From Branchiostoma floridae (taxonomy: Eukaryota), in NCBI RefSeq assembly GCF_015852565.1, contig NC_136205.1, positions 3,066,707 through 3,130,706 on the forward strand: a stretch of 64,000 nt of DNA. Direction: 5' to 3'. This document shows positions 1,745 through 58,738 of this stretch, one piece after another. How positions within the stretch are numbered: position 1 is the first letter of the stretch; every line of letters begins with the position of its first letter. The notes below the pieces were generated by a model. That model had not been told where the DNA came from. It searched no databases and worked only from the letters and a program-made list of their open reading frames with translations. The translations under genes were made by a program, and so were the position numbers.

Positions 1745-2769
1745 CTATAGTAAGGAAAAGACTTATCATATAATAAGTGTCATCGACTAGATATACTGAT
1801 GATAGTCAAAGGGACTCATGGGCAACACATCCAGCATTAATCATGTTCTTCCAGTTGTCGTGACTAGATTGATGAAACTACAGAAAATAACAGTTTCTCC
1901 CATCCGTGAACAGTTTCATCAGGTTGGTACGTCACTGAATAAAGAGAATCTTTTTACACAACCAGTGCTTTATTCTCACCGACTGTATATACATATGTAA
2001 ATACTTTTCGTTTTGTGACCGCATCTGAACTGTGAGCAGCGACACCTGTCCTGCAGTACAATGTGAACCAGTCAGAATTGCCCTGAAGAAGGTGACAGAC
2101 GGTCACCGAAACGTCGGTGAGAATAAAGCACTGGTTGTGTAAAAAGAGTCTCTTTATTCAATAACAGTTTCTATTGCAGGAAAGGAGAGTTACAAAGATA
2201 TGTAACTGTTTCATGACACTTAAAAGTGTAATTGCTACCCTGGTGATCATGAAACGATTAGTTTCAGAGCAGTTCATATGTCAGCACCAAGGACAGTGGG
2301 TTTTATTTATGTCAATTTGCCTTTAGACGTCGGTGATAGTTCTAGAGTAACCAACTTTACTTCTGTAGTTTAATGGATTGATTTGTTGCTATAGATTGGC
2401 TATCGATGGCAAAATGGAGAAAATAAATTGTCAAAGAATCGAAATTGTAAATTATTTTGTGTATATTAAGCCCCTGTCACACAGAAGGAAAAAATCTATC
2501 GGTCTACGAATCTGCAAGCTCTACATTTACAGCAGTAACACGCTGTGTATTCTTTCCATCATTATGAAGATTTTTAAGAATCGGTCGATGCTCGTAGGTC
2601 AATGAGCGGAGTTGAATGTGTTTGTGAAGAATTTTCTGGTTAAAAATTCTGGCGTTTTTCAGAGCTTACAACCTTCGGGCGATCAACAAGTTCAGTCGAA
2701 GCTCTTCGTTTGTGTGACAGGGGCTAAAAAAGTAGTTGCCTCGCATTGACAAGAATAAAATGTACGTAC

Positions 2770-2940
2770 ACGATGGGAAGGTGGGAATCCTTAGTTCACA
2801 GTTCTCCCCGACAAACCCGCTGGTGCACCGACATGTGTAGGTCACCACGCCGACCTCACAGGTTCCGCCGTTCAGACATGGCAGTGACGCGCAGGGGTCG
2901 GTGGTGTTCGGAGACATCGCAGTAGTGTTAGCATCATCTG
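2770..2940 (-). CDS. EGF-like domain exon ([35 protein letters not shown])
   Basis: EGF Cys pattern in the minus-strand ORF 2666-3004. The low boundary is uncertain. Confidence 0.55.
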
Positions 2941-3590
2941 CTGGATGGATTGAAAAAATCAACATCAACGTACAATGTATATGTAACATGAAATTTACAC
3001 TCAAGTGTGGCTATGACAAAATCGTGTTCCGAAATACCAATGTAGTTAGCATCTTCTGTGAGATGGATTGAAAACCTTGTCAGCATCAACGTATATTTTA
3101 TATATGACGTTTGTACTCAAATATGGCTTTGACAAAATCGTATTCCGAGACACCACTGTAGATAAACATCATCTGTGGGATAGATGGAATATATCGTCAA
3201 CATAAACAACAACGTCAACGTACATATTTGTATAACATTTGCACTCAAATTTGGCTATGACAAAATCGTGTTCCGAGACACCACCGTAGAGTTAGCATCA
3301 TCTGTTGGTGAAGCAAAAACGTCGTTAACGCATGGCGTTTGCACTCACGTGATTATGACGTAGGAATTGTCCGCCATATTGGATGATTATACTTTTAAGC
3401 TGACGATATTTACTTTGCAAGTTATTACAGCTTCGCAATTTCAACGTCGTTACATATCAGACACCGGGAGCTATTTTCATTTATGTTATTATCATTATTT
3501 CGATGAAGCTATAAATGAATTAGAAATATACAGGATTTTGCACTATGTTGTTATTCAGGCAAGATCAGTAAACATTCCATGAATTCTTAC

Positions 3591-3708
3591 CTATTTCACA
3601 GTGTACGCCGTTGAAACCTTCCGGACAATCGCAGATGTACGTGCCATTTACCTCCAAACAGATACCACCGTTCAAACATGGATTAGGCGAACACTGTTCA
3701 GTCTCTGT
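3591..3708 (-). CDS. EGF-like domain exon ([33 protein letters not shown])
   Basis: EGF Cys pattern. The donor reverse complement cttac lies at 3586-3590. Confidence 0.6.
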
Positions 3709-3953
3709 GGAAAGTATAGCAAAAAAACGTTTTGATTGGATTTCATTAAACAATAAACAAAGCGAGTTAGCAATAACTATAATTGAATAAAAAGATTACC
3801 AAACGACAAATCCTAAATTAATGCCATGGTAAAGTGTAATCTTCAGACAAGATTAGCTCGGTGTCTGTGTAAGCTAAAAGGTACAAACTAAGACACTTCT
3901 TTCATTTCTCACATGGTTTTTACGGTGTGGAAATTAAATGTGACTTTCCTTAC

Positions 3954-4064
3954 CTTCGCAATTGCCCCCACGGTATCCCACTGGGCATGCGCAGTTATAA
4001 CCATTCAACAGGTCCTCACAAGAGCCGCCATTTTGACAAGGGTTCGAAACACATTCGTCTATTT
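3954..4064 (-). CDS. Calcium-binding EGF exon ([37 protein letters not shown])
   Basis: D-x-D-E-C cbEGF motif. The exon is 111 nt and flanked by cttac|...|ctg. Confidence 0.7.
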
Positions 4065-4163
4065 CTGCAAAACGGAAATAACAAATTAGAATATTCAGCA
4101 AAAATGGCAGAAATACTAAATTATGACCGAATCTAGGTCTGACAAAAATAACATTCTCCTCAC

Positions 4164-4277
4164 CTTCTTCACATGCATCTCCTCTGAATCCTTCTGGGCA
4201 TGCGCAGGTGAATAAGTTGACGTCATCATAACATGTGCCCCCATTCTGACACGGACTGGACTGGCACTCATCAACGT
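4164..4277 (-). CDS. Calcium-binding EGF exon ([37 protein letters not shown])
   Basis: 114-nt phase-1 exon with the cbEGF motif. Confidence 0.75.
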
Positions 4278-4404
4278 CTGTAAAGGTCAAAGTTCAACAC
4301 AAATAGTTATCACGCACTATATGTATTGTTGGTCACAGAACGGGTTAGTAGTACATAACTTTAGGTTAGAAAATGACATTTTTTTAGCTTTATTACTGTA
4401 CTAC

Positions 4405-4518
4405 CATTTTCGCAGTTGACTCCGTCAAAACCGACTGGACAGATACAGGTGTATGTCGCGACTAGGTCGTCACACGTGCCGCCATTTTGACAAGGACTGG
4501 ACTCACACTCGTTGATGT
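4405..4518 (-). CDS. Calcium-binding EGF exon ([37 protein letters not shown])
   Basis: 114-nt exon with the cbEGF motif. Confidence 0.75.
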
Positions 4519-4687
4519 CTGAAAACAAAACGGAATGGACCAGTATTACATTGAGCACATTTTAGGTACAACTTGTGTTACGAAAAAAAAAAACGATAAC
4601 AAAGATTATAACCAGAACGATTTAATTTCTTTCTGCGTAGATATTAAATGACTAAAACAACTATTAAAGGAAGACAATCTAACGCAC

Positions 4688-4801
4688 CTGTTTCACAGTT
4701 GACCCCCGCGTATCCAGGTGCGCAGGTACAGGTGTAGCTGTTCACCTGGTCCTGGCACGTGCCGCCATTTTGACATGGATTCGACTCACACTCGTTCCCT
4801 T
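4688..4801 (-). CDS. Calcium-binding EGF exon ([35 protein letters not shown])
   Basis: 114-nt exon with the EGF Cys pattern. It has no ORF of 60 aa or more in the provided track but has the same architecture as its neighbours. Confidence 0.7.
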
Positions 4802-4923
4802 CTGCAACAATGGAAATCAGAAAAACGATGACATAATTCTTAAATGATTTCCTTTACAAAAGATTCATCATACTTCAATAAAAATCATCATGAATTTCAG
4901 AGATGATAGAAGAGATATGGTAC

Positions 4924-5037
4924 CATCTTCGCATGTTTCTCCACTGTAACCATCTAGGCATGCGCAGGTGAATGAGTTGACGTCATCATAACATGTGCCC
5001 CCATTCTGACACGGACTGGACTGGCACTCATCAATGT
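4924..5037 (-). CDS. Calcium-binding EGF exon ([37 protein letters not shown])
   Basis: 114-nt exon. It is nearly identical to exon 4164-4277. Confidence 0.75.
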
Positions 5038-5165
5038 CTGGGTAGGTCAAAGTTCATCACAAAAAGTTATTTCGAAGCATGAAATCAACACTCAGTTTCA
5101 ATTGGAAAGTGGTAAGTAACAATAATTTACGAGTTCTATGAGTAATACTTTGAAATACATCTTAC

Positions 5166-5279
5166 TTTCTTCACATCTGTCGCCGGTAAATCCGTCTACG
5201 CATGCGCAAGTGAAAGAGTTGACTCCGTCAGAGCAGCTTCCACCGTTTTGACACGGGCTGGACTTGCACTCATCAATGT
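5166..5279 (-). CDS. Calcium-binding EGF exon ([37 protein letters not shown])
   Basis: 114-nt exon. It belongs to a near-identical tandem exon-intron unit of about 235 bp. Confidence 0.75.
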
Positions 5280-5400
5280 CTGCAAAAACGTTTAACGTTG
5301 ATTATTTGAAGTAGCTAAACACAACACGATTGTTCGTGAAGTAACAAGTGAAGAAACTCCTTCCGTTGTACTTGAGTATGTGCACAAAAGAACGTCTTAC

Positions 5401-5514
5401 TTTCTTCACAGCTGTCGCCGGTAAATCCGTCTACACATGCGCAAGTGAAAAAGTTGACACCATCTGAGCAGCTTCCGCCATTTTGACAAGGGCTGGATTC
5501 ACACTCATCGATGT
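5401..5514 (-). CDS. Calcium-binding EGF exon ([27 protein letters not shown]...CE)
   Basis: 114-nt exon in a tandem unit. Confidence 0.75.
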
Positions 5515-5633
5515 CTGAAAAAGATAGCGTTTATTATTTGAATCAACCAATCAAAGAGCTCAATATTTAGGAAAAGGTAAATGTCATTAAGTTCTTAAAT
5601 TGATTTTAATTTACAAATTGAAATAAGTCTTAC

Positions 5634-5747
5634 TTTCTTCACATCTTTCGCCGGTAAAGCCATCTGCACATGTGCAGGTATATGAGTTTGCACCGTCCGT
5701 ACAGATGCCGCCATTTTGACACGGGTTGGACTCACATTCGTCAATGT
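5634..5747 (-). CDS. Calcium-binding EGF exon ([37 protein letters not shown])
   Basis: 114-nt exon in a tandem unit. Confidence 0.75.
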
Positions 5748-5880
5748 CTGTAAAACGTTAACGTTCATTATTTGAATCAGCCAATCACAACACGATTGTT
5801 CGTGGAATAGCAAATAAAAGAAACTCCAATAATTGAGCTGTACTTATTTTGGACTTGTGTATGTGCGACAAAAATCTTAC

Positions 5881-5994
5881 TTTCTTCACATCTGTCGCCG
5901 GTAAACCCATCCACGCATGCGCAAGTGAAAGAGTTGATGCCGTCAGAGCACCTACCGCCATTTTGACATGGGCTAGACTCGCACTCGTCGATAT
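5881..5994 (-). CDS. Calcium-binding EGF exon ([37 protein letters not shown])
   Basis: 114-nt exon in a tandem unit. Confidence 0.75.
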
Positions 5995-6102
5995 CTGAAA
6001 AGATAACGTTCATTTTTTAAACTAACCAATCAGAGAACTCAATATTCAGGAAAAAGCAAGTATCATAAACCTAATAAATTCATTTATGTATCGAAGTCTT
6101 AC

Positions 6103-6216
6103 TTTCTTCACATCTGTCACCGGTAAAGCCATCTGCGCATGTGCAGGTATATTTGTTGGCTCCATCCGTGCAGCTTCCGCCATTTTGACACGGGCTGGAC
6201 TCACACTCGTCAATGT
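6103..6216 (-). CDS. Calcium-binding EGF exon ([37 protein letters not shown])
   Basis: 114-nt exon in a tandem unit. Confidence 0.75.
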
Positions 6217-6454
6217 CTGAATAAAAAGATAACGTTCAATATTTGAATCAACCAATCAAAACAGGTAATACGTCGACCACAGTTATACATCCAGGTAATA
6301 GGATACACCGAATAGCGGTTACTCAAATTCAAATGCAAACAACTGGAAAATCATGTCCAGTTGTTTCAGTAACTGCTATTTGGCACCAAACGTGTATAGT
6401 TAGGGGATGGCAAGAATCATGAACTTGGTAAATTGTACTTCAACAATATCTTAC

Positions 6455-6568
6455 TTTCTTCGCAGAAGTCGCCCACAAACCCATCTGCGCATGTGCAGGT
6501 GTAAGAGTTTACTCCATCCGTACAGGTACCGCCATTTCGACACGGGCTGGACTCGCATTCGTCAACGT
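6455..6568 (-). CDS. Calcium-binding EGF exon ([37 protein letters not shown])
   Basis: 114-nt exon. Confidence 0.7.
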
Positions 6569-6825
6569 CTGAGTAAACATAGTAGAAAAATTGGTCAACG
6601 TTTGAACAATCACTTGGAAATATGTTTGGACACCATTAGGCTAAGTGTAAATTAGTTGTCATTGGTAAAACTGCACATTATAAAAGTGCTTATAATTTTA
6701 GAAAGATTTGTATTCGCCAAGGTCTAAGTAAATATAGCACATTTGACAACGTTTGGACAAACATTGAGAATGAACAAGTTTATAACATACTAAGTATGTT
6801 TGGACACCGTTAGAATTAGCTTAAA

Positions 6826-7036
6826 TACTGTAAATGCAGAAATGTTCGCGGTGGATTAATATTCGCGGTTTTCGCGGTGCCCACTCCAACGCGAAATTAA
6901 AACTACCGCGAACAGTTTCCTATTATGGTATTAGACTGCAGTCTCTCGTGTTACCGCGAAATTAAAACGACCGCGAAAAGTCCTTTTTCCCCGCTACTGC
7001 GAAATTAAATCCCCGCGAACTTAAATGCATTTACAG
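6826..7036. mobile_element. Tc1/mariner-type MITE (~210 bp, TIR CTGTAAATGCAGAAATGTTCGCGG, TA flanks), copy 2
   Basis: ctgtaaatgcagaaatgttcgcgg…ccgcgaacttaaatgcatttacag, with related copies at 1-57 and 41613-41815. Confidence 0.7.
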
Positions 7037-7116
7037 TATGTTGTCATTGGTCTCACCATGCAATAAAATGCGAATAAACGTAGAGAGAAATTTTGATAAA
7101 CGTTAAAGATTTTTAC

Positions 7117-7230
7117 CTTCCTCACACCTGTCGCCAATGAAACCGTCTGGGCATGCGCAGGTGTAAGAGTTGACGGCATCGCTACATATGCCTCTATTTT
7201 CACACGGATCGGATTCGCACTCGTCAATTT
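7117..7230 (-). CDS. Calcium-binding EGF exon ([37 protein letters not shown])
   Basis: 114-nt exon. Confidence 0.7.
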
Positions 7231-7551
7231 CTGGAACGAGAGGAATTAAAAGCTACTTCATAATTTCGCAATAACATGTGAAAACAAGTAAGTAAAACTA
7301 ATTGTCAAAGTGTCAAATACGTACCTAATATTTTACCTCACTGATTGAGAAACCTTTTATTTGGGTCACTTTTAGTCAAGGTCACCGTACAAGTTGATAG
7401 GTCATCTATGTTGAACAGGGTGGAAGACAAAGATTTGATATATACTATCATAATGATACTGGCAATCTCTTGTTGTGACGAAAACATGCATCTTTACGCT
7501 TGGTAATTTTTGTTCTTAATTTTGTATCAAATGAAGAATTCTGCACAGTAC

Positions 7552-7665
7552 CTTGTTCACAGTTGTCTCCTCTATACCCGTCAGCACAGTCACAGACGTA
7601 TGAGTTGACTCCGTCTATACAGGCACCGCCATTCTGGCACGGACTCGACTCGCATTCGTCAACAT
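7552..7665 (-). CDS. Calcium-binding EGF exon ([37 protein letters not shown])
   Basis: 114-nt exon. The donor is gtactg on the minus strand. Confidence 0.7.
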
Positions 7666-8055
7666 CTGTTTGTAACAATAAAAGTTTTGTTAAACAAAAT
7701 CAAATTTAAAGAATGGTGTTGCTTTCGCGTTACTCAACAGCTTGGGCACCATTGACATTTTGTTTTAGTATATTTCATTTTTTCTAGATTCATGTGTATA
7801 AAGACTGACCAGGGCTTTAGAGCCTTTCTCTTTCCCACACCCGATTGCTGTTTATTACATCTTCATCTATATACTGGTAAAGACCAAAATGCCCAGTAGT
7901 ACTAAACAGTTGAACCGCCTAGAAACACATAAAGGCAAAATTCCCGTCGCTAACTATGGAAGCAGCAGTACCCTTAAGCTTAATACATGTATCATCTTTT
8001 AGAAATAATTTCTTTCTTGAATATTAGATTATCGAAGACAAAGCACATCACTTAC

Positions 8056-8181
8056 CTGTCTCACAAACTTGCCCTATGAAGCCTGCCGGACATGCGCAGA
8101 CAAAACAAGTATCTTCATCGGCCGAGTAGGTGCAGGTCCCACCATTTTCGCAAGGGGTAGGGTCACAATAGTCCCGTTTCT
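8056..8181 (-). CDS. EGF-like exon (RDYCDPTPCENGGTCTYSADEDTCFVCACPAGFIGQVCE)
   Basis: 126-nt exon with the EGF Cys pattern. Confidence 0.6.
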
Positions 8182-8614
8182 CTGTCGAGATCAAAGTAGA
8201 GATAAAAGAAGCCTTTAAAATCTAGTATGTATCATCTGTGGCTGATTATATTCATAAAAGGCAATGTTTTGATAAAAGAAAGTATGGCATGAAAAAGGCA
8301 TCTCGTTATAATATGGCGTCAGTCTGACTTTCTTGCTCATGTACTGTCTACTGTGTTTGATACGTCAATGAAAGTTAGACATCCAGGTAATAAGATAGAC
8401 CAAAAAAGCGGTTACTCAAGCAACTGGAAATGATTTTGGAAACGGTCAGACGTTTCAGACAGCATCGCTATCTTTCGACATTGACGCTGAGGAAAGCTGT
8501 TTGAAGAGAAGGTCTTATATCCTACCTATGACTTGAGTTAAACTTAGTCTCAGTTAGTGCGTTGGATCATTACAGATTACCGTCTGCACCCCTGTCAATC
8601 ATCTGATGACGTAC

Positions 8615-8753
8615 CTTCTTGGCAGGTCTGCCCCTCCCAGCCACACGCGCAAGTGCTGTCGGGACATTCTCCGGTGAAGCGGTTGCAGACGGCGTCATCA
8701 CGACAGTGGCAGGTAGAGGTGCATCCGGCACCAAACGTTCCCGCGCTGCACGC
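8615..8753 (-). CDS. Laminin-type EGF-like exon (CSAGTFGAGCTSTCHCRDDAVCNRFTGECPDSTCACGWEGQTC)
   Basis: It shows the 8-Cys laminin-EGF-like spacing in the minus-strand ORF 8595-8834. Confidence 0.5.
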
Positions 8754-9465
8754 TACAGAATCACATAAGTCAACAATTTTACACTGAAACCTGAAGATCT
8801 GCTGAAGTACTAAACACAGCCGATAGGGGTCCATAATCGAAACGTCTAGATGTACCTAAACTAACATTACTTATCAAATGTATTAAAAGATGCATTCATA
8901 ACTTCTCGAGTAAGTGCTCAAAAACGAACCATTCTTGGTAAGGTACGTAAAGTGCTCTGTATACATGGAAACATGTTTTGGCATTCTTCACTTTCTTTCC
9001 CTGTGGTAAATATCACACATTGTACAGTTCTTTTTGAAGGTTAGGTCAATTTTGACTTTTTGAACAAGTGATAAAATATTGGCTCCCCCAGTGCTGCTGT
9101 TCAACTCACTATGTAAGGTGCAGTTGTCTACTGAAAACTACACAGAACGTTTAAAAAAGGAAATTGAATTGAACAGCAGGGACTACAAACCCAGACGGGG
9201 GACGATACAGACTACCTGGCATAATTGACCCGTCGTTGACGTCACGCTAACGTTCAGGCCACGTGACATCAAGCTATTTTAAATTGCGAGGACTGATCGA
9301 AAGCTTGTGCTTTACTTTGTGTGCAAAATATATAAATAAAATTAAATATAGAATATTAAGTGTTTACAATGATTTGAAATATTCTATTGACAAAGGAAAA
9401 CTGGTCATTACGCATGTAAACAATTACCAGGCTATCATATAGACAAGAAAGGCAGTGTCCCGTAC

Positions 9466-9618
9466 CTGTGTCACATCTCAGACCCCGGAAGCCGGTGTTA
9501 CAGGAGCAGCCGTACGGGTCGGGGACACAGAACTGGAGTTCTGCGCATGCGTCAGGGCTGTCAACGCCATTGTCGCATTTGTGGGAACACGCCAGTCCGA
9601 ACCGGTTACTTCCGCAGG
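9466..9618 (-). CDS. EGF/laminin-EGF-like exon (SACGSNRFGLACSHKCDNG...CSCNTGFRGLRCDTG)
   Basis: Cys-rich ORF 9356-9643. Minus-strand splice sites are cctcag|exon and exon|gtacgg. Confidence 0.5.
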
Positions 9619-10003
9619 CTGAGGAGGGGGTGGGGTGAGTCATTCGTTTGTTTGTTTGTTTGTTTGTTTATTTGGTTTATTCACACACAATGTCGGAATA
9701 CTTCACAGTTGAGTGGTCTAAAAAGAAACTACTGATATGTAAAGCATCAGTAACAGCAGGCCCTAACCTGGAACCCACAGGGCAAACAAAAGAGTGGAAG
9801 GCATAAGAACAGCTGGAGAAGGGACACCGAGGAAGAGATGAGGAGCATCAGTAACAGCTGGCACGACCTGAGAAGGAAGGCACAGAGACGTGTACAGTGG
9901 AGGGCAATCATCGGTGGCCTATACTCCAACTGGGGCAAAGGGCCCAAGTAAGTAAAATATGTAAAAAAACAAACAAAATAAAAAATCGAACTTCGTGTCT
10001 TAC

Positions 10004-10135
10004 GTATTTCGCAGCGGTCTCCCCGAAAGCCCGGTGGACAGATGCACTCCCCCGTGTCGGAGTGGCACATCCCACCGTGGAGGCAGTTCGGACACCCCCG
10101 GCTACATCCGGGACCCCACCGGTTTTCTTGACATC
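10004..10135 (-). CDS. EGF-like exon (GCQENRWGPGCSRGCPNCLHGGMCHSDTGECICPPGFRGDRCE)
   Basis: Cys-rich ORF 9747-10163. The exon is 132 nt. Confidence 0.55.
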
Positions 10136-10618
10136 CTAAAGAAAAAATGACAGGTGTTAACACTCACGTGACTGTGTCTTAGGTACTGCCCGCCATGTTG
10201 GATGGTTAAAGCTGGAAGTTGCTAGGTAACTTTGAATTATCATATGCAGACGTCAGGTAATTATTACATCATATCATACAAATGCACATTTACAGGTATC
10301 CAGAAGGGAATCAACCAACATGGCAGACAGTAACATACCAAAACTATTTTTTTCAGAATGCTCTGGGGACAAGAACTGACATTCTAAGTGAATGTATGAT
10401 AAACGTTGTTTTTGAAGTCTCCATTGATCAATCGACCCATCAATCAATCAGTCAATAAATTAATCAATCAATTTACTTAAAGTTTTCTACTAACTTCTTG
10501 ATAAATTGTAGTTTACTAACAAGTCAGATTCAAGGATGTATTCGTGTGCTTTACAGAATATTGTGAAAAGGCAGTTAAAGACAATGGTCAGTGCAGCAAA
10601 CTGATAAGTTTAGTGTAC

Positions 10619-13038: not shown

Positions 13039-15133
13039 AACCCTATTCAGACCGGTGTGACAGCGATCTCGCCCCCCCGTGATCTCGCCCCCCGGGGGGC
13101 GAAATCACTAGCGATCTCGCCCCCCCGGGGCGAAATCACTAGCGATCTCGCCCTCCCCGGCTAGTGATCTCGCCCCCCTACCTCGCCCCCCTTTAGCGAT
13201 TTCGCCCCCCCCCCAAAAAAAAACGGTTTTACATGACATTTTAAAAGTTGATTGGTATAAATCACAAAATTCAGTTTCAGAATGATATAAGTACATGCGT
13301 TTGATACATAACTCCATTTATAGTATCAATATTAACGTAATTACATGGTAATAAGATAGTTGAACTTGTTTCAGACAAGGAGGGTTGGGTCCCTTGTATT
13401 CCAATTATTGCATATACCTGAGTCTTGACATAAGATGTATTTCATTGTATTCACCTGTCCTCAAGCAACCTATATATCTCCAATATGAAGTTTCTACCAT
13501 GAAGTGACCACAAAATAACTATGTAATGTCTTTATTAATTATGCAAATATTAGGTATTAATTAGAATAACGCACATTTTGGTATATGCACCTGGCCAAGG
13601 GATATCTTCACCTCCAACATGACTGTTTTTTCTAGTATTTAGGAACTGATGCATTTACCCTTGTTTCTTAAGACTGATACTTTACCAGTGTTTGTGTAGC
13701 ATTTAGCAACAGCTATATCAACTTGCGCGTAGATAGTGTTTATAATGAGAAACTATTATTCACGTGTGTTTTTGTTAGTGCTTTGGAAATGTTTCCAGCA
13801 CAAGAAAGAAAACACTGTGACAAATTGAAAACATATAGCTGACGTATTCCGTACCATAGACGGTGTTGATTTATACGTTCGCAGTAGCACTGTTTTTATG
13901 CCACCTCAGCTGCAAAAATTGTCTTTTTCATTTCAATGTTATGTTTGTACCGAACAATATAGTATCGACTTTCGAGGTATGACATCTTACGGTACGGTAA
14001 TAAGGTGCCATATAGGTACCAGGTAACACACCATATACATTACTCCCCAGGTGCAGTATAGTGCCAGGTAGCGCACCTGTAATATGTAGTAACCAGCTGC
14101 TTTGGGGGGGGGGGGCGAAAACGCTAAAGGGGGGCGAAAACGCTAGTGATCTCGCCCCCCGGGGGGGGCGAGATCACAGGGGGGGCGAGATCGCTGTCAC
14201 ACCTGGCTTTTTTGGTCATCCCTGGACCGGGGGGGGGGGGCTTTTGAGGCCCTCCACTTCTAAGTCCTCTAACTCTCGAACGACGTGCCGTAAGGCCACC
14301 AAATTTTCAGGACATTTTATCGACATAATATCTGACAAGTATTTGGCGTTTGACGTTACGTTGACGTAAGATGACGTAATTATGACGTCATCAATTTGAT
14401 TATATTGGCCGGACCCATGAAAAAGGGTATTCTCAGAAAACTTCAAGTTATACTACAAAAATGTAACAATAAGTGCAGATAACAGAATAATAATGTTTAT
14501 TTCGACTTGTATTGCCAATAGCACCATCGATGACGTCATAATGACGTAAAAAAAATGACGTCATGCACATCTAAGATACGAGATAGGCTCCGCCATATTA
14601 TATCCACCACCTTGAATTTTTAAAACTTCTTTTTTTGCAACAAATAATCACAAAGGGCAATGGAAATAGACTACATTCATTCATTTAGATAGTTTTTGAT
14701 GAAAAAATACCAGGTAGTTACAAATTTTAAGGGAAAATAAGCTTGTTATTCTTGATCTGGCCATACGGTCCGCCATCTTGGATTTTGGGCTGATGACGTC
14801 ATCAAATTAGCATAATTTATGCATATATAATTATGAAAGATATGCTAAATAATATAAGATTTTATTTATGTAACAAATTAGCAGTAATATAGCAAATAAA
14901 TGTGAAAAATACATTGTTAGAACCAAAAATAGTGATTTTTGGCAAAACTGCCTGTCAGCAAACGGTTGCCATGGCAACACGAAAAATTGGAAGATTTGTC
15001 AAACTTCGCAAAATTGTTGCCAACAATATTTTAGGAAAACTCACCAAATTTGGTGGCTTTAGCGTAAGGCGTTCTGGCGTTATAGGACATCGAAGTTAGC
15101 GCGGGCCCCAAAAGCCCCCCCCCCCCCCGGTCT
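13039..15133. mobile_element. Non-autonomous piggyBac-like element (~2.1 kb) with TTAA target-site duplications
   Basis: TTAA|CCCTATTCAGACCGG ... CCGGTCTGAATAGGG|TTAA. Subterminal inverted G/C-rich repeats (gcgatctcgccccccgggg) lie at 13060-13210 and 14100-14215. Confidence 0.75.
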
Positions 15134-16931: not shown

Positions 16932-17511
16932 CGAGGGGCGTTCAAGAAGTAATCCACCTGACCCATTTCCCAAAGGAGGAGATTAATGAAACTTGGTGCA
17001 GTTATTAGTCTTTCTCTTCATAGGAATCACCCAGAGTTATGCATTTCTACCATCGTTTGATGCAGCTCTGTACACCGTTTTTGTAGGACGCCCCAGGTTG
17101 GTCCTGCAACAGATGCCTCATCAATGGCAGAAGAGGGACGACCAGGTCTGGGAGCTGTTTCCACAGACTTCCGGCCATGTTTGAATTCACAATGCCAGCG
17201 TTTTACAAGGTCATATGATGGGGAATCATCACCATAAGTTTCTTTTATTTCATCAAAAGTCTCATTTGGTGTGCGTCCTTTCAAATACAAAAACCGGATC
17301 ACTGCGCGACACTCAACTGGCTTCATTTCACACCTGGTCCATTTCACACCTGACTCAGTTCAAACACCTTTAAATCAAAAACCAAAATTAGTTCAGAGCT
17401 GTTTTTTGCAACATAACCCATAGAGATATGAATCATTACATATGCAAAATTTCATCTAGATCAGACAACTGGAAGTGGGTCAGGTGGATTACTTCTTGAA
17501 CGCCCCTCGAT
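16932..17511 (-). mobile_element. Internally deleted mariner-like element (~580 bp) with ~38-bp TIRs and a remnant transposase N-terminal HTH ORF
   Basis: The TIRs are cgaggggcgttcaagaagtaatccacctgacccatttcc and its reverse complement at 17473-17511. ORF 17027-17347 (…CRAVIRFLYLKGRTPNETFDEIKETYGDDSPSYDLVKRWHCEFKHGRKSVETAPRPGRP) resembles the Mos1/Himar HTH. TA dinucleotides flank the element. Confidence 0.8.
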
Positions 17512-20539: not shown

Positions 20540-21050
20540 GGATGGCTGTTATTTTAGGTGTGTGTGTGTGTGTGGGGGGGGGGGTCTCTAGAGTTTCAAC
20601 GTTGATTTAATAAGGTTCTCAAATGGGAAAGGCAGCTTGCCGTGGAAAGGCGGTCTGCCTAAACACCACAAACGACCACAAACGACTCAGAAACACCACA
20701 AACGACCACAAACGACTCTAATATGCAGTGTGGCGCTCTGCAAGCACGCATTCATTGACATCGCTTCCATCTTGAAACCGGCGGACTAACTCGAAATAAC
20801 TGGTGAATACGTAGGACTTGCTGCACTCTTTAAATTCATAAATGTGTAAACAATGTCTCCAGAGCGCCACACAAGGTTTTTGACCCATATACACTGCATG
20901 TTAGAGTCGTTTGTGGTCGTTTGTGGTGTTTAGGCACACCCTGGAAGGGTCCAGTTTTGCACCGCTGCTGGTGGCATTATCTAGAACCTTAGTCAACGTT
21001 GAAAGTTGCGAACTACCTTCCACCACATGGAATAACAGCCAGCCCCATTA
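20540..21050. repeat. Large foldback/inverted-repeat structure with internal (aaacaccacaaacgaccacaaacgactc) direct repeats
   Basis: 20640-20720 is the reverse complement of 20885-20935. The outer arms 20540-20600 and 20990-21050 are also complementary. Confidence 0.6.
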
Positions 21051-21077: not shown

Positions 21078-21440
21078 ATCTATCGGAGGTCAGTACCAAG
21101 GCTTTAGCCAGCTCGAATTTTTTTTTCCGTCAGCCAATTACAATCGTCGCGAAAACCGCAAAAATTAATTAGAAGGACTGAACTGAGACCTTGAAAAATG
21201 GGTTTTAATGAGATTATCGTATGCGAAAGGGCGCCGACACACATTGCCAACAATCATAACAATAGCAAAACAAACAGTGTGTGGCTTTTACGGCCGTGGA
21301 CGGCGTCCCCAAGCCGCCTGTAGCTTCCACGAAGCATTTTTGTCCGTCAAGGTTGACGGATTGGTTTTAAAATTTTTCTGTCACAGGCAGCAAATTTCCG
21401 TCAATTGACGGAAAAACGGACGCTGGCTAGACCCCTGGTC
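21078..21440. mobile_element. hAT-like MITE (~360 bp), copy 1, with an 8-bp TSD of GTCAGTAC/GTCGGTAC
   Basis: TIR CAAGGCTTTAGCCAGC…GCTGGCTAGACCCCTG. The internal sequence is about 90% identical to copy 2. Confidence 0.7.
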
Positions 21441-21541
21441 GGTACGCATATAATGATAAATCAAATCAACATGGTGAAGCTATGCAATTGCATTGTACCC
21501 AGCACACTGAGAGTTAACTGTTCAGGCTGCTTTGTCCTCAG

Positions 21542-21673
21542 ATGGGCGTGTTCCGTGGTTGCCAGGTAACCCTGGAGCTGACAGGTGTCACACTTCCATA
21601 TAAGGAGAAGAAGAGGCTGAGGGAACTCGTCACACAGAATGATGGCATCATCTCTTACATCATCAACAAAAAG
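21542..21673 (+). CDS. PARP4: PARP4 (vault PARP) exon 1 with start codon; BRCT domain start
   Basis: MGVFRGCQVTLELTGVTLPYKEKKRLRELVTQNDGIISYIINKK aligns with human MVMGIFANCIFCLKVKYLPQQQKKKLQTDIKENGGKFSF. The donor is AAG|gtcaga. Confidence 0.8.
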
Positions 21674-22170
21674 GTCAGAGGGCAACTGTTCATTGTCCAG
21701 TCAAAAAGCAATGCTTGAGTTGTAACTTGTAACGTATAGAGTCCAGTTGATTCTGTGTATGGATGTAATGTTTTCAGTGTGCCTGGACTTTATGTTTGAA
21801 GTTATTACAACATGTAGAATATATTGAGTACACTGTCTTATAAGTGGCAGGAAGTGATTGAGAAAGTGGTGTCACTACAAAGGTCAGACCTCCAGGAGTG
21901 ACTGGAAATAGAGTCCAGAGGTGGTAGAACTTAGCTATTTATCAGACATGGTAGACATTCCAGGTCATGGGGTCAATGGAAGGGGCCACTAATTCATGGG
22001 GAGGTATTGTTTTCAGTGTTTTTTTTTTGCAGTTACGTATTTTCCATCTGCTAGGTTAGAGTCTGTTCATGCAATACCTAAGGAATTTGTGAGACAAAAA
22101 AAGTATCATTCCATGTTAGAAATAACCATTCTGTCTTTTCTGTTGACAAATTGATTTACACATTTTCTAG

Positions 22171-22639: not shown

Positions 22640-22902
22640 ATAGAGAATTGCTAAACTTTCATTCCAACACAAAGATAATGTAGGGACTTAAATTTTCGGT
22701 CGATTTCCGTCAAGTTACCTAATGTTCACAGAATGACCCTTTCTCACTCCAGCAGTGACGTCAGGAAGACACCACTTTTGTAGGTGGGGGTCATAAGTAT
22801 CAGAAAGTCTATGTCGCCCCCCGTCTCTGTTGAGTGTGGGCCGATGGGCTCTGATGTGCAAGGCCTCCTTCACTCCTCGTGCGAAGAAATCCTCAACAGA
22901 GA

Positions 22903-22939
<37 letters not shown>

Positions 22940-23125
22940 CGACATAGACTTTCTGATATTTATGACCCCCTCCTGCAAAAGTGGTGTCTTCCTGACGTCA
23001 CTGCTGGAGTGAGAAAGGATTTTATTCTGTGAACAAGGTCGACGGAGATCGGACCGAAAATTTAGGGGTAAGTCCCTACATTATCTTCGTGTTGGAATGA
23101 AAGTTTAGCAATTCTCTATAATGTA
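22640..23125. mobile_element. Foldback element with ~200-bp inverted arms around a 39-nt poly-G tract, in PARP4 intron 2
   Basis: The arms at 22640-22895 and 22945-23125 are reverse complements. G39 sits at 22901-22939. A related fragment lies at 37195-37310. Confidence 0.7.
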
Positions 23126-26229: not shown

Positions 26230-26892
26230 GTTCGTTCGTTTGTTCGTATCCATTTTTGATTATACTGCTGCTGGGATCCCTGTCACGGGTAGGCAGCAGT
26301 CGGATAGTCTTCACACTGTGCTTATAATAATATAATAATATCATTAATTTCTTTCTGTCCCTTGAATTTTCAATGGAATACTTGTCGAGTGTGGAAGGCG
26401 CGATGATCCTAAAGGGGTCTTGGGAACTTAGTTTCAAAATCTCTGAAAGACCCCCTGAAACACTGTTTCCTGCATTTTGAGGGGCAAATTTTGCTGGTAG
26501 AGTAGACTCAGCTTGGTCCAATCACCAGGTATCTGAGCTGTATTCATGGAGATCTTTGCAATATTTGATTTTTTAGATATCTTTACATGCTGGTTTTTGT
26601 CCGTCACAAAGGACAAAATGTGTAAAATGTTTGTTTGTCCCTAGCTGCAAAGTTCCATCGAAAACAAGGACGGATGCAGACTAGAACCCTGGGTTGTACT
26701 GTAACCTAGTATTGATCAGAAGTTTCATCACTTAGTAATCAAACATACTTTCTTGATCTTTTAGGTATTATTATCACCTATAGAAATGTCTGATTTGTTG
26801 AAAAATATTGTATAATGATATGATATGAAGTTATGACGTTTAATTGAAATTATGACATTAATGCATTTTACATGAACTATTTTCTTTTCCAG

Positions 26893-27069
26893 ATCGACAA
26901 GGCAGAAGCACTACTTCTAAAGCTAAAGCAGGCTGTTGAAAGGAAGGCAGCAAATGAGGAGCTTCAGAAACTCTCCTCGGAGTTTTACAGCGCCATCCCC
27001 CACCGACCCGTCCACAAGTGTGTCATCAGGAACAAGAGGATAATAGCACGGAAACAGGACATGTGTCAG
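26893..27069 (+). CDS. PARP4: PARP4 exon 8
   Basis: ttttccag|IDKAEALLLKLKQAVERKAANEELQKLSSEFYSAIPHRPVHKCVIRNKRIIARKQDMCQ|gtacag. Matches human ILLLVKAALKNGETAEQLQKMMTEFYRLIPHKG...KKADLCQ. Confidence 0.85.
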
Positions 27070-27071
27070 GT

Positions 27072-27430
27072 ACAGGGCTCTAGCCAGCTCGACATTTTTT
27101 TTCCGTCAGCCAATTCCCAATGTCGCGAAAACACTATTCCAGGAGTTAGAGAGACTGAACTGAGACCTTAAAAAACGGGTTTTAATGAGATTATCGTATG
27201 CAAAAGGGCACCGACACACAATATCAACAATCATAACAATAGCAAAACAAACAGTGTGTGGCTTTTACGGCCGTGGACGGCGTCCCCAAGCAGCCTGTAG
27301 CTTCCACCAAGGAGCTTTTATCAGATTTTTGTCCGTCAAAGTTGACGGATTGGTTTTAAAATTTTTCCGTCACACGCAGCAAATTTCCGTCAATTGACGG
27401 AAAAACGGACGCTGGCTAGAGCCCTGGTCA
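27072..27430. mobile_element. hAT-like MITE, copy 2, inserted exactly at the donor of PARP4 exon 8. Its 8-bp TSD GTCAGGTA duplicates the CAG|GTA junction.
   Basis: TIR CAGGGCTCTAGCCAGC…GCTGGCTAGAGCCCTG. The flanks are ATGTGTCAGGTA|…|GTCAGGTAAAAAG. Confidence 0.75.
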
Positions 27431-28012
27431 GGTAAAAAGTAGGCCGGTAGCCTAAAAGTAAGACATTGTCAGGCTTCAGTTGATCCATAGACTATAGAAT
27501 GAATGAATGAAGGAAGAAAACCTTTATTGTAAAATGATAAAACTATGTTTCTGCTCTCACAAGCTAAGTACAAGTCAAAATGATAATAAAAGATGACAGT
27601 TCCGAGTAGTCTGAGTACAAGTTCTTAATTAAGTTCTAGTGATGTGAGGGCAAGTTATCTCACTACATTACTACTAGTCTAGAAACAGGGCCTCAGTTGG
27701 CATAGCCTGGAGACATGATATGTTACACTTCAGTCAAGCAATACCAGGAAGACAAGACATGTCATGTCATGATATATCAAACAACCTGAAATTTTGCTAG
27801 TCAAGAAAGAAATCTGACAGAGGTTATGTGCTATATTAATTTTGTAGGTTTCAATGCATAGTACAAGATTGTACAAAATCAAAGCAGCTGTATATTTTAC
27901 TTAGAAGATTACTTTGAAGTTTATGAACTCTAGCATAGTCATATAATAACATTGAATTTAAAAATGGAATGCAAAAGTGTTTAACGTTAATTTTTCATGT
28001 TTCCTTTCCCAG

Positions 28013-28176
28013 CTGATTCGAGACATGGTGAGCGTGAGTGAGGCCACGAGCTGGGCTTATCGCCCGAGCGCCGTCGCCAGGTGCCACGCCCTCAGGTGTA
28101 ACATCCAACCACTGGACAGGGACAGCGAAGACTTCCGTAGTCTGGAGTCCACGATTTACTACAGCCAAGGGAAGGG
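28013..28176 (+). CDS. PARP4: PARP4 exon 9
   Basis: tttcccag|LIRDMVSVSEATSWAYRPSAVARCHALRCNIQPLDRDSEDFRSLESTIYYSQGK(G)|gtaagg. Matches human LIRDMVNVCETNLSKPNPPSLAKYRALRCKIEH. Confidence 0.85.
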
Positions 28177-28195
28177 GTAAGGCCATTGTGTCACA

Positions 28196-28375
28196 GGGAT
28201 GAGTGAGAGAGTGAGTGAGAGAGTGAGTGAGTGAGTGAGTGAGTGAGTGAGTGAGTGAGTGAGTGAGTGAGTGAGTGAGTGAGTGAGAGTGAGTGAGTGA
28301 GTGAGTGAGTGAGTGAGTGAGTGAGTGAGTGAGTGAGTGAGTGAGTGAGTGAGTGAGAGAGTGAGGTAGTGAGTG
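28196..28375. repeat. (GAGT)n/(GAGTGAGT)n microsatellite starting 20 bp downstream of the PARP4 exon 9 donor
   Basis: gagtgagagagtgagtgag…(gagtgagt)n is visible. Confidence 0.9.
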
Positions 28376-29922: not shown

Positions 29923-30301
29923 GTAAGGGTCGTGTGGCGCAATTAGAGGGTGTTTGATTGATGAAACTCTTGTTTTCCCAGTTTTCCGTAAGCCAGTGAA
30001 AATGTTTGGTACATGGTGCTGAAATGCCGTCCATCAAAATTTGAAGACTTAGTCAGTTACTACTGGTGGCTGCTGGTCCCAGAAAAGTTATTTCCTGATG
30101 TCAGTTTCCTGCTATATGTATGTAGTACATGTATGACCTAGGAGCCAGTGGGGAAAATACTGAAGACTTTATCAAAAAGAAATTTGCAGTAATAATGACT
30201 AAAACTGGAAATTAACATAAACTAAAAAAAGAATATTTCATTGAGGCATGACACTATTGATTTCTTGTTTCTTGCTATTCAACAATGGTCCATTCTTACA
30301 G

Positions 30302-30420
30302 CACCAGTGCAAAATACTCCTCTCCCAACAAGTCCAGAGGTACCAGATACATGGTAGTGAGTGAGGTAGCCTTGGGGAAGTGTAAGGATGTGTATCAACA
30401 CGGCATCGATTCCTAAATGT
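30302..30420 (+). pseudogene. Tandem partial duplicate (copy 1) of PARP4 exon 13: acceptor plus the first ~115 nt, ending in an in-frame TAA
   Basis: ttcttacag|CACCAGTGCAAAATACTCCTCTCCCAACAAGTCCAGAGGTACCAGATACATGG... repeats the exon-13 start. It then diverges at ...GTGTATCAACACGGCATCGATTCCTAA. Confidence 0.7.
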
Positions 30421-30453
30421 TTCTAACATTTCAATCATGGTCCTTTCTTACAG

Positions 30454-30577
30454 CACCAGTGCAGCATACTCCTCTCCCAACAAGTCCAGAGGTACCAGAT
30501 ACATGGTAGTGAGTGAGGTAGCCTTGGGGAAGTGTAAGGATGTGTATCAACACGGCATCGATTCCTAAATGTTTCTA
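30454..30577 (+). pseudogene. Tandem partial duplicate (copy 2) of PARP4 exon 13, a 158-bp unit
   Basis: Second near-identical copy of the unit. The authentic exon is the third copy, at 30606-30789. Confidence 0.7.
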
Positions 30578-30605
30578 ACATTTCAATCATGGTCCTTTCT
30601 TACAG

Positions 30606-30789
30606 CACCAGTGCAGCATACTCCTCTCCCAACAAGTCCAGAGGTACCAGATACATGGTAGTGAGTGAGGTAGCCTTGGGGAAGTGTAAGGATGTGTACA
30701 AACACGACACCAGCCTGACACAACCACCTCAGGGGTACAACAGTGTGCATGGAGTCAAGGGGACTGATGAGATCACTTCAGAGTTTAAG
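30606..30789 (+). CDS. PARP4: PARP4 exon 13 (PARP catalytic domain)
   Basis: tcttacag|STSAAYSSPNKSRGTRYMVVSEVALGKCKDVYKHDTSLTQPPQGYNSVHGVKGTDEITSEFK|gtagga. Matches human LSTSIKYSHPGETDGTRLLLICDVALGKCMDLHEKDFSLTEAPPGYDSVHGV. Confidence 0.9.
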
Positions 30790-31019: not shown

Positions 31020-32600
31020 CTGCATTCTATTCACCTTGTTTCCAATGACATAATTTCCGAAAACCAACATGCGTATAGAAAATCACACTCTACAGCTAGT
31101 GCCCTTATACAAATGTCTGACTACTGGTTGGGGGAGATAGATAAAGGGAATTTGATTGGCGCCGTTATGCTAGATTTTAGCGCGGCATTTGATGTCATTA
31201 ACCACGATATTTGTTTAGCCAAGCTTAAGAGCTATGGTTTTGAGGAATCTGCAATCAAGTGGGTACAGAGTTATCTTGGCAACAGGAAACAAGCTGTATT
31301 CGTTAACGGTAGTTTTTCCTCATATAAAGAATCCAGGTGCGGCGTTCCCCAAGGCAGCTGCCTGGGTCCATTGCTTTTCTCTATATTTGTCAATGATCTC
31401 CCCGCATTTACAAATAGTATAGTAGTCATGTACGCTGATGATTCAACGCCCTCAGCATCGGCTCCCACTGTCGCGAAATTGAAATACAAATTGCAGACTG
31501 ACTTGGAGCGAATCTGGAATTGGGTACAAACTAATCATCTTGTTCTCAATATTGGAAAAACTAAATCAATCATGATGGGTACGCAACAAAAACTAAAACG
31601 TAATCCCAAATTAGAACTAAGAATAGATGGAACAGACATTACACATGTAGAACAGGCTGAACTGTTAGGTCTCACTATAGACCAACGTCTCACATGGGGA
31701 TCGCATATTGACAAAACGAAGAATAAAATGGCAGGCATACTAGCCACAATAAGACGACACAGGAAGTACTTCACAAAAAGTATATTGAGATCTGTTATTC
31801 AGGCTCTGGTTTTGTCACACATTGACTACGGCTCAGTGCTGCTATCCTCTGCACCACAGACACACATAGATGGTCTTCAGGTGGTCCAGAATCGCGCTGC
31901 TCGCCTGGCCACAAACAAGCCCTTTGACACCAACCTGGAAGACCTACACATGCAGTTAAAGTGGCAAACCGTTAAAGAAAGACTCTTCACAAATACTGTA
32001 TGTACATTCCACAAAATTGTTAAGGAAAGGCAACCCCAATGCATCTTCAAGCAATTACAAACAATTCAATCCACACATGAGCATCACACGAGGCTGTCTA
32101 CTAGAGGAGCATTCACTCAATCAAAACCCAAAACAAACGCTAAAACAAGGACATTTGGCTACAGATGCATCAAAACCTATAACACATTGCCAAACACAAC
32201 GACATCATACAACAACATTGAGTTCAAATCTAGGATAAAAGAGCTTGCGAAAACACGAGACAAAAGACAACCCCTGAGCACATGGTGGTAATGATTTTTA
32301 TATTTCAGTATATCTAAGTTATATATTTATGTTGTGTTATTAGTACACTTTTGATTGGATTGTGTTTCAATCAATTAAGTTAACTTCTTCTGCTATTCAT
32401 TATTTGTTATGTATGATCACTTCTTTATTTTGACCTCTGACCTCTGCTTATTATTTTGCTTATTATTTTACGCTAATTATCCGCTTTTGATGTTAAGTTG
32501 TTTCTTTTTCATTTCATGTATTTTATTTATTCTTATTATTATGACTCCAGGAAGAGTAGTGGCATGATTTTATGATGTACACTAATGGAGATCGCAACAA
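31020..32600 (+). mobile_element. 5'-truncated non-LTR (LINE) retrotransposon fragment with a reverse-transcriptase ORF, lying in the PARP4 intron between exons 13 and 14
   Basis: ORF 31113-32291 carries RT motifs: AVMLDFSAAFDVINHD, CGVPQGSCLGPLLF, YADD, and a thumb-like C-terminus. Confidence 0.8.
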
Positions 32601-41210: not shown

Positions 41211-41612
41211 GTCAAAACATTCCAATATACATGTAGTACCTGTCAACTTGTAAACCTGAGTCTGTAAACTTGTAAAATGCAAAACTTTGTACTAATTTGT
41301 ACCAGGTCTCAATGTTGTGCTCTTTGGAATTTAGGCACAATATCCACACTCATCAGAATGAATACCACAGTATCCATTTTTATTAGAATGAATACCTAAC
41401 TGTTGTTAGTGTCACTAAAATGAGTGATGCTGAAGAAGAGTGATGGATGTCACTTGAAATGTCCGTTTTTTTATCCAGTTGTTGGGATTGAATTGTATTT
41501 GAATATTGTTTACCTGGGTGTCCAACCTTCATAAAGGACTTCTCAAACTAATCTGAAACATGGCTAATCATTCTAAAATGAAAAAGTTTGTAATTGAAAT
41601 TACTGTAAATGT

Positions 41613-52353: not shown

Positions 52354-52452
52354 AGTGTTGACACGATGCACCCATCAGTGTACTCCCGTTTGGAGCTTGG
52401 GAAGAGTTGGGAGGACCTGACCACAAAGCTGATCGGTGTCAGCAATGCATAG
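52354..52452 (+). CDS. PARP4: PARP4 terminal exon 37 with stop codon
   Basis: ttttcacag|SVDTMHPSVYSRLELGKSWEDLTTKLIGVSNA*. Matches the human C-terminus YPSICPRLELGNDWDSATKQLLGLQP. Confidence 0.85.
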   Translation, partial: SVDTMHPSVYSRLELGKSWEDLTTKLIGVSNA

Positions 52453-58639: not shown

Positions 58640-58738
58640 GGTGTTTACGCGATGCACCCATCAGTGTACTACCGTTTGGAACTTGTGAAGAGTTGGGAGG
58701 ACCTGACCACAAAACTTATTGGTGTCAGCAATGTGTAG
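58640..58738 (+). pseudogene. Second copy of the PARP4 terminal exon (…GVYAMHPSVYYRLELVKSWEDLTTKLIGVSNV*), together with its upstream intron segment
   Basis: ttctcacag|GGTGTTTACGCGATGCACCCATCAGTGTACTACCGTTTGGAACTTGTGAAGAGTTGGGAGGACCTGACCACAAAACTTATTGGTGTCAGCAATGTGTAG is about 90% identical to 52354-52452. The upstream intron sequence is also duplicated. Confidence 0.7.

Follow-up and report, generated by a model that had tools for sequence, protein, structure and literature searches.

A hAT-like miniature element at the splice donor of PARP4 exon 8 in Branchiostoma floridae, flanked by a target-site duplication that copies the donor

What becomes of an exon when a DNA transposon inserts exactly at its splice donor and leaves a copy of that donor on either side of itself? 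The question is raised by a locus in Branchiostoma floridae at which a short element lies on the junction between exon 8 of a PARP4 gene and the intron that follows. The window analysed here is the whole stretch of 64,000 nucleotides that contains this locus (assembly GCF_015852565.1, contig NC_136205.1, positions 3,066,707 to 3,130,706). Positions are given in window coordinates, and the features listed with coordinates lie on the forward (+) strand. We ask where the exon ends, what the element is and how it arrived, which of the two donor copies serves the gene, and whether the family to which the element belongs is drawn to splice donors.

The exon concerned (26893..27069, 177 nt, phase 0) is number 8 when the coding exons are counted. 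Preceded by a good acceptor, ttttcttttccag|, it encodes IDKAEALL...RKQDMCQ in the one frame that stays open for 59 codons; the product belongs to the PARP regulatory helical domain, and the exon alone corresponds to residues 294-352 of human PARP4 (PDB 8sx1/11jf). The next coding exon (28013..28176, beginning LIRDMVSVSEATSW) is preceded by the acceptor tttcctttcccag| and corresponds to human PARP4 residues 352-397; its 3' end, read off the sequence, is probably at GGG|GTAAGG. When 26893-27069 is joined to the sequence from 28013 onward, the resulting 114-residue peptide matches Pfam PARP_reg (E = 1e-9). Its best match among solved structures is human PARP4 residues 294-397 (PDB 8sx1/11jf, E = 2.4e-18), far ahead of PARP3 (E = 0.005) and PARP1 (E = 0.018). 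The alignment passes through the junction with no gap (DMCQ|LIRDMV against human DLCQLIRDMV), and therefore we place the end of exon 8 at 27069, with CAG, and the start of the intron at 27070, with GTA. A donor at 27064|27065 (TGT|GTCAGG) was considered and rejected, as it breaks the frame and loses the conserved Gln.

The remainder of the gene can be followed across the window. A working human PARP4 query sequence aligned colinearly by tblastn over residues 3-1706, from 21542 to about 52440; the query was validated by these colinear matches and by PDB matches for residues 249-397. Its residues 3-42 align to the first coding exon (21542..21673, MGVFRGCQVTLELTG...IINKK), which encodes the N-terminal half of the BRCT domain and follows the acceptor-like sequence ctttgtcctcag|. 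An earlier exon mapping, in which a 4857-residue concatenated six-frame query was compared with PDB, had low sensitivity and recovered only exons 7 and 8. Matches from PDB, Pfam and tblastn together give, in the same order as in human PARP4, the domain architecture BRCT - PARP regulatory - PARP catalytic - VIT - VWA, and the sequence suggests that the whole gene lies within the window and is otherwise intact over about 31 kb. An intronless glycosyltransferase ORF is also present in the window. The intron that follows exon 8 (27070-28012) is 943 nt long. Its first 362 nt are the element and the duplication, and the other 581 nt are non-element sequence with a strong acceptor of their own. Therefore, the intron is older than the insertion, and the element lengthened an existing intron from 581 to 943 nt; it did not create it.

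The element itself, hereafter copy 1, occupies 27073..27426 (354 bp). Its terminal inverted repeats (TIRs), CAGGGCTCTAGCCAGC on the left (27073..27088, with the terminus CAGGG) and GCTGGCTAGAGCCCTG on the right (27411..27426), are complementary at 16 of 16 positions. On either side stands GTCAGGTA (27065..27072 and 27427..27434), a perfect 8/8 duplication detected by repeat search, with 362 bp from start to start. Across 27040-27440 the layout reads ...ACATGT, GTCAGGTA, the element from CAGGGCTCTAGCCAGC to GCTGGCTAGAGCCCTG, GTCAGGTA again, and AAAAG. The left copy of the duplication comprises the last five exon bases, GTCAG (-5 to -1), and the first three intron bases, GTA (+1 to +3), with the donor junction at 27069|27070. 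The right copy holds a second CAG|GTA, which keeps the original intron context, GTAAAAAG, and has its junction at 27431|27432. The first-pass annotation had proposed an insertion exactly at the exon 8 donor and a duplication that copies the exon end together with GTA, and the gapless PARP4 homology and the duplication itself bear out both proposals. The interval it gave for the element, 27062-27438, does contain it and takes in flanking sequence as well, the element proper being 27073-27426.

Inside its ends, copy 1 is rich in short repeats. A left subterminal repeat, TTTTTTTCCGTCA (27096..27108), belongs to its direct and inverted repeat families, and the motif TTTCCGTCA / TGACGGAAA is present as four direct and several inverted copies, recurring at 27330-38, 27364-72 and 27384-92 and, inverted, at 27342-49 and 27394-27405. 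Over the whole window, clusters of this motif are confined to copy 1 and to the second element copy described below; the subterminal repeats may represent transposase-binding sites. Copy 1 contains only short, stop-interrupted ORFs. An Rfam search of the window gave no family match and does not support a structured RNA. A scan of the window for 12-nt inverted repeats with an 8-bp duplication returned five matches, compared with 0-1 in ten shuffled control windows, and copy 1 alone had unrelated flanks. The other matches were rejected as hAT-like elements: they are palindromic, and their apparent duplication is an extension of the inverted repeat.

A second member of the family, copy 2, lies in the same orientation at 21097..21437 (341 bp). 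By blastn within the window it aligns with copy 1 over its full length at 86.6% identity (E = 1e-124), with 33 substitutions and 13 gap columns, and its TIRs are degraded (CAAGGCTTTAGCCAGC / GCTGGCTAGACCCCTG). The duplication around it reads GTCAGTAC on the left (21089..21096), where a preceding GGAG gives the donor-like GGAG|GTCAGTAC, and GTCGGTAC on the right (21438..21445), with 7/8 bases matching between the two. A second copy with an 8-bp duplication had been reported before; both are real, at coordinates a few bases away from the 21078-21440 then given. When the two copies are aligned with their flanks, homology extends from CA(G/A)GG to CCCTG. A mis-call of the element boundaries had been named as a possible weakness, and the ends of copy 1 proved exact by the 16/16 TIRs, the 8-bp duplication and this two-copy alignment. 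A model with a 3-bp duplication and an element ending in GTCAG was rejected, as GTCAG would still be needed 5' of both targets; it is also contradicted by left-side homology that starts at CAGGG. The intron upstream of exon 8 holds a one-ended relic of a related family, consisting of a 3' end only (26594..26691, terminus GCAGACTAGAACCCTG, flank GGTTGTAC). Its match to copy 1 is weak (67% identity over 103 nt by blastn), and a search for its left end found none.

To which superfamily does the element belong? An 8-bp duplication (8/8 in copy 1, 7/8 in copy 2), 16-nt TIRs and a CAGGG terminus are all structural features of the hAT type. Its size (under about 800 bp), TIRs and duplication are those of a miniature inverted-repeat element (MITE). 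MITEs are typically non-coding and occur in many homogeneous copies; the 64 kb here contain two, which are 13% diverged. The clustered subterminal ACGG/CCGT repeats and short TIRs resemble the arrangement at Ac/Ds termini, where Ac has AAACGG repeats. Non-autonomous hAT elements are mobilised by the transposase of an autonomous partner with the same termini, a protein with a BED zinc finger, a DDE/RNase-H fold and a hAT C-terminal dimerisation domain. In the window we found neither a transposase nor an autonomous partner, and no further TIR matches. An 8-bp duplication and a YARNG terminus have been described as typical structural features of hAT elements (PMC3014272), and CAGGG fits YARNG. 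The element is thus most likely a hAT-like, non-autonomous element of MITE size, with the hAT assignment made by structure, and the first description of it as a hAT-like MITE is upheld by its TIRs, 8-bp duplication, CAGGG terminus, subterminal repeats and homologous second copy. P elements likewise make 8-bp duplications, and the P-element target motif GTCCGGAC matches the two duplications here at 5/8 and 6/8 positions, so an origin in the P superfamily, or in another superfamily that makes duplications of this length, deserves mention. We consider such an origin improbable in view of the CAGGG terminus, which fits YARNG, and of the short 16-nt TIRs and ACGG-type subterminal repeats, which are Ac-like.

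The history that we favour, and hold to be likely, is that a DNA transposon that moves by cut-and-paste, most probably a hAT-type element, landed on a pre-existing PARP4 exon/intron junction and was tolerated, with the upstream donor in use. Transposase would have cleaved the two strands of GTCAG|GTA with an 8-bp stagger, and the 8 bp would have been doubled when the gaps were repaired. Exon 8 would in this way still have ended intact, with a GT donor immediately before the element, and a second CAG|GTA would have come to lie in the original intron context 362 bp downstream. What made the insertion tolerable, on this view, is that the duplication restored CAG|GTA as a minimal donor, with the A at +4 as the price.

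The two donors that result are not equivalent. From +4 onward the upstream donor, CAG|GTACAGGG, is made of inverted repeat, whereas the downstream donor, CAG|GTAAAAAG, retains the original intron context. The first-pass annotation had spoken of two identical exon-end-plus-donor sequences; they are indeed duplicated, 362 bp apart, but their identity reaches only from -5 to +3 (GTACAG upstream versus GTAAAA downstream), and the insertion has cost the upstream donor its +4 A. A simple donor position weight matrix with approximate frequencies, to be read purely as a heuristic, gives 0.3 bits for the upstream donor against 3.2 bits for the downstream donor. With the same heuristic matrix, scores run from -0.8 to 7.3 for about 17 other PARP4 donors that a small spliced-alignment script proposed, one doubtful call aside. 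Weakened as it is, the upstream donor does not fall outside the scores of the donors that this PARP4 gene apparently uses, and it keeps six contiguous U1-complementary bases (-3 to +3).

Splicing from the downstream donor would lengthen the exon by 362 nt, a number not divisible by 3, and so shift the reading frame. By translation, an in-frame TAA is reached at 27169..27171, after 32 extra codons (VQGSSQLDIFFPSANSQCRENTIPGVRETELRP*). With later junctions far downstream of this premature stop, the downstream-donor transcript is a predicted substrate of nonsense-mediated decay and should be degraded by this pathway. The downstream donor had been put forward as a route to a longer exon that includes the element; the frameshift and the stop after 32 codons make such an exon unusable. 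The junction named for it, 27438 to 28013, also has to be replaced by 27431 to 28013, since the exon would then end on base 27431, followed by GT at 27432-33. Only the junction from 27069 to 28013 yields the conserved protein, and the rest of the gene looks intact. We therefore infer that functional PARP4 mRNA uses the upstream donor, with the element carried as extra intron sequence.

Substantial mis-splicing is possible, given that the downstream donor is about 3 bits stronger and stands in its original context. It could even be that the insertion is deleterious, that most transcripts use the downstream donor with its original +4 A and its score some 3 bits higher, and that the element is exonized and PARP4 reduced to a hypomorph or null, maybe as a recent, polymorphic insertion. 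Perfect TIRs and a perfect duplication are compatible with a young insertion, and PARP4 loss is tolerated in mice. However, the remaining gene appears intact over about 31 kb, and the upstream donor keeps its six U1-complementary bases and a score within the PARP4 donor range. The differences between copies 1 and 2 at CpG-type sites run in both directions, and copy 1 is therefore not demonstrably pristine. On this evidence a deleterious insertion seems to us unlikely, with enough in its favour to be kept in mind. The single locus is mainly of use to annotators, who can record a MITE within an intron, a PARP4 exon 8 donor that has been weakened and, possibly, an isoform subject to nonsense-mediated decay.

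The structure that copy 1 may adopt in a transcript bears on the choice between donors. In the predicted RNA fold, its TIRs form a stem of 16 bp with the entire element enclosed (MFE -121.9 kcal/mol, z = -3.3). Both CAG|GTA copies adjoin the base of this stem, side by side, and the stem therefore does not clearly give an advantage to either. By juxtaposing the two sites in RNA, such a stem would suit a route in which the element and one duplication copy are spliced out on their own, in the manner of an introner or a recursive splicing step, from 27069|27070 to CAG| at 27431. This route would exactly restore the original donor CAG|GTAAAAAG for a second splicing step, and the duplication does contain AG|GT, with introners that have AGGH or 8-nt duplications documented elsewhere (bioRxiv 10.1101/2020.10.14.339549; PMC9860276; PMC11282704). 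The acceptor that it requires, GCTGGCTAGAGCCCTGGTCAG|, is 53% pyrimidine, has competing AGs and scores 1.4, compared with 3.1-4.4 for neighbouring real acceptors. Moreover, direct splicing would yield the very same final mRNA, so that nothing requires the additional step, and we regard it as highly improbable.

Is the position of copy 1 on a donor a matter of chance, or does the family seek such sites? The duplications GTCAGGTA and GTCAGTAC share GTCAG in register in the two copies. For random 8-mers of the window, at least 5/8 matches would arise with a probability of about 0.03 and a terminal run of 5 with about 0.003, which on two copies is suggestive of a sequence preference. The first-pass annotation had described the shared target as GTCAGTA-like; aligning the two duplications in that way needs a gap, and in register they overlap in GTCAG only. 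The published target motif is GTNCGNAC (earlier NTNNNNAN) for hobo and GTCCGGAC for the P element (PMC3276498). For Hermes it is NTNNNNAN, and most of the Hermes duplications listed start with GT (PMC2803484). The GTCAG duplications match the left half (GTC.G) of the hobo and P-element motifs. Set against the consensus nTnnnnAn (GTnnnnAC in hobo), in a comparison of three sites at most, GTCAGTAC fits fully, GTCAGGTA fits only in the T at position 2 and has T, not A, at position 7, and the relic flank GGTTGTAC fits only in the A at position 7. We consider it most likely that the GTCAG common to both copies reflects an ordinary half-palindromic preference of the hAT/P type, for which recognition of splice sites is not needed. 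The simplest reading is that GT and CAG of the target motif overlap the splice-site consensus by happenstance. The donor GT falls at duplication positions 6-7 in copy 1, where the donor is real, and at positions 1-2 in copy 2, where it is donor-like. The window contains 149 GTCAG sites on both strands, two of which are occupied.

A family that truly prefers donor-like targets, with insertions at 5' splice sites enriched and tolerated through a donor regenerated by the duplication, would also account for the shared GTCAG, for which the chance values just given apply in the same way. GTCAG is similar to GTRAG at intron positions +1 to +5, and CAG, the consensus for the end of an exon, is part of it. 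PARP4 here also uses GTCA donors, as judged from the inferred donors AAG|GTCAGA at 21674, CAG|GTCAAA at 41211 and GAG|GTCAGC at 42489. Copy 2 may itself sit on a donor, that of a 5'UTR intron, since GGAG|GTCAGTAC lies 453 nt upstream of ctttgtcctcag|ATG. There are two copies only, and the case was noticed because one of them is on a donor. The register of GT differs between the duplications (6-7 versus 1-2), the hobo and P-element motifs already have GTC.G as their left half, and just 2 of 149 GTCAG sites in the window are occupied. For these reasons we judge a true preference for donors to be improbable.

The placement of copy 2 deserves closer attention, as it would supply the second donor. 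It ends 104 nt upstream of the PARP4 ATG at 21542, which comes directly after ctttgtcctcag|, with a branch-like TTAAC 24 nt further up, and GGAG|GTCAGTAC scores 3.6 bits in the heuristic donor matrix. A TATAAT at 21449-54, just downstream of copy 2, equally allows for a promoter there. The putative 5'UTR intron would have measured 104 nt before the insertion, which is unusually short, all other inferred PARP4 introns being longer than 400 nt. We consider it possible, if on the doubtful side, that copy 2 occupies positions +1 to +8 of such an intron. In its strongest form the argument would be that the family has a GTCAG preference that coincides with 5' splice sites in two registers, and that insertions at donors are both enriched and systematically tolerated. 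We give this little credence. If it were true, the two registers would be GTCAG as intron +1 to +5, or CAG as the exon end followed by GT, and both copies in the window would be examples in a single gene, one at the exon 8 donor and the other at the putative 5'UTR-intron donor. The family would then stand one mutational step from an animal introner, as an exonic CAG|GT target would leave the element flanked by AG|GT.

We also looked for further copies of the family elsewhere. An exact 24-mer from the conserved 3' end had no match in metagenome or viral contigs, and the TIR string CAGGGCTCTAGCCAGC had no match in a literature search. A degenerate pattern that combines the subterminal repeat and the inverted repeat matches all four element ends in the window; outside it, the pattern gave 11 matches in metagenomes, 12 in prokaryote genomes (all of them bacterial contigs) and one in a virus. 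The 11 metagenome matches were rejected as family copies, as blastn shows a match at the level of the pattern only. The 12 prokaryote-genome matches and the viral one are treated here as probable chance matches.

The ordinary hAT history that we favour can be set beside three known systems. The first are the hAT MITEs, relatives of Ac/Ds, hobo and Hermes, with which the element shares the 8-bp duplication, short TIRs ending in YARNG, clustered ACGG/CCGT repeats, a small size (354 bp), the lack of coding capacity and duplications with an initial GT like that of the hobo and Hermes motifs. It differs in that the copy 1 duplication does not have the A at position 7 of NTNNNNAN, and in that the window holds two copies and one relic, with no transposase seen there. 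In classical insertions at or near splice sites, such as the maize Ds/dSpm alleles, the element is spliced out through cryptic sites. There as here a DNA transposon lies in a transcribed region and its effect is set by competing donor choice; the maize donors, however, lie within the ends of the element, whereas here both come from the duplicated host target.

Introners are the third. In some introner families, one splice site is brought by the element and the duplication provides the other; others, with an AGGH duplication, draw both from it, and families with an 8-nt GHN6 duplication are also known (bioRxiv 10.1101/2020.10.14.339549; PMC9860276; PMC11282704). As in introners, the duplication at PARP4 exon 8 supplies AG|GT, and transcripts can be spliced as though the element were absent. 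An introner, with or without its duplication, makes up a whole intron with splice sites at its boundaries, and its many near-identical copies form lineage-specific introns in unrelated genes. In contrast, copy 1 is not coextensive with an intron and has lengthened an older one from its donor, and nothing here points to many intron-forming copies. The case is a single example of a known phenomenon, an insertion by standard hAT-type cut-and-paste, and calls for no new mechanism. Were the family to prove enriched on donors across the genome, a link would emerge between the ordinary target preference of hAT elements and the evolution of introns in an animal. As it stands, the locus is a tidy case from nature of the way in which a splice site hit by a transposon can be rescued by the target-site duplication, and introners exploit the same principle.

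The PARP4 gene contains a tandem repeat at window positions 30278-30706, where a 152-bp unit is present in 2.8 copies with 97% matches. The unit spans a 3' splice site, tttcttacag|, as well as the start of the PARP catalytic-domain exon, and the peptide encoded by its exon part, SYSTSAxYSSPNKSRGTRYMVVSEVALGKCKDVY, gives three tblastn matches in the window, at 30294, 30446 and 30598. The 152-bp period is not divisible by 3. This duplication may be genuine, which would give the exon three acceptors in competition, or it may have arisen as an artefact of assembly. Further along the gene, positions 52369-52440 encode the peptide of the last conserved PARP4 exon, HPSVYYRLELVKSWEDLTTKLIGV, and tblastn places a second copy of this peptide about 6 kb downstream, at 58655-58735. 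Because this exon's peptide recurs downstream, the sequence suggests that the 3' end of PARP4 is partly duplicated.

A long (GTGA)n microsatellite occupies 28180-28370, starting 4 nt past the inferred donor of the exon at 28013..28176, which follows the intron carrying a hAT-like MITE. The microsatellite yields numerous tandem donor-like GTGAGT motifs.

Small inverted-repeat elements are found both in and near PARP4. One of these, at 20652-20940, has arms of 37-41 nt made of ACAAACGACC repeats (CCTAAACACCACAAACGACCACAAACGACTC...), with an internal duplication within the left arm. It lies immediately upstream of a second copy of the MITE (21097-21437), so small DNA elements are clustered in the 5' region of PARP4. 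A palindromic element in PARP4 intron 2 (22738-23018) has 85-nt arms that are 96% complementary around a G13/C13 run, and a 174-bp palindromic element at 14374-14547 has 22-nt arms containing TGACGTCA. Transposon-derived coding sequence is also present. An RVT_1 (reverse-transcriptase) ORF of 392 residues on the + strand (31113-32291, E = 6e-19) is a fragment of a non-LTR retrotransposon, located within a PARP4 intron in sense orientation. Upstream of PARP4, on the - strand, lies the relic of a mariner transposase, an ORF fragment with the Mos1-type HTH_48 domain (17030-17359, E = 2e-9).

Two further coding features lie on the - strand. Across 2600-10200, successive ORF fragments show cysteine patterns of EGF-like type, which indicates a multi-EGF gene upstream of PARP4 and on the opposite strand. 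At 60018-61244, an intronless ORF of 408 residues matches the Pfam family GT4-conflict from end to end (E = 3e-77), and an exact-sequence look-up of this ORF returned no record. GT4-conflict, a family 4 glycosyltransferase in conflict systems, is a prokaryote-type family and is unusual in an animal genomic window.
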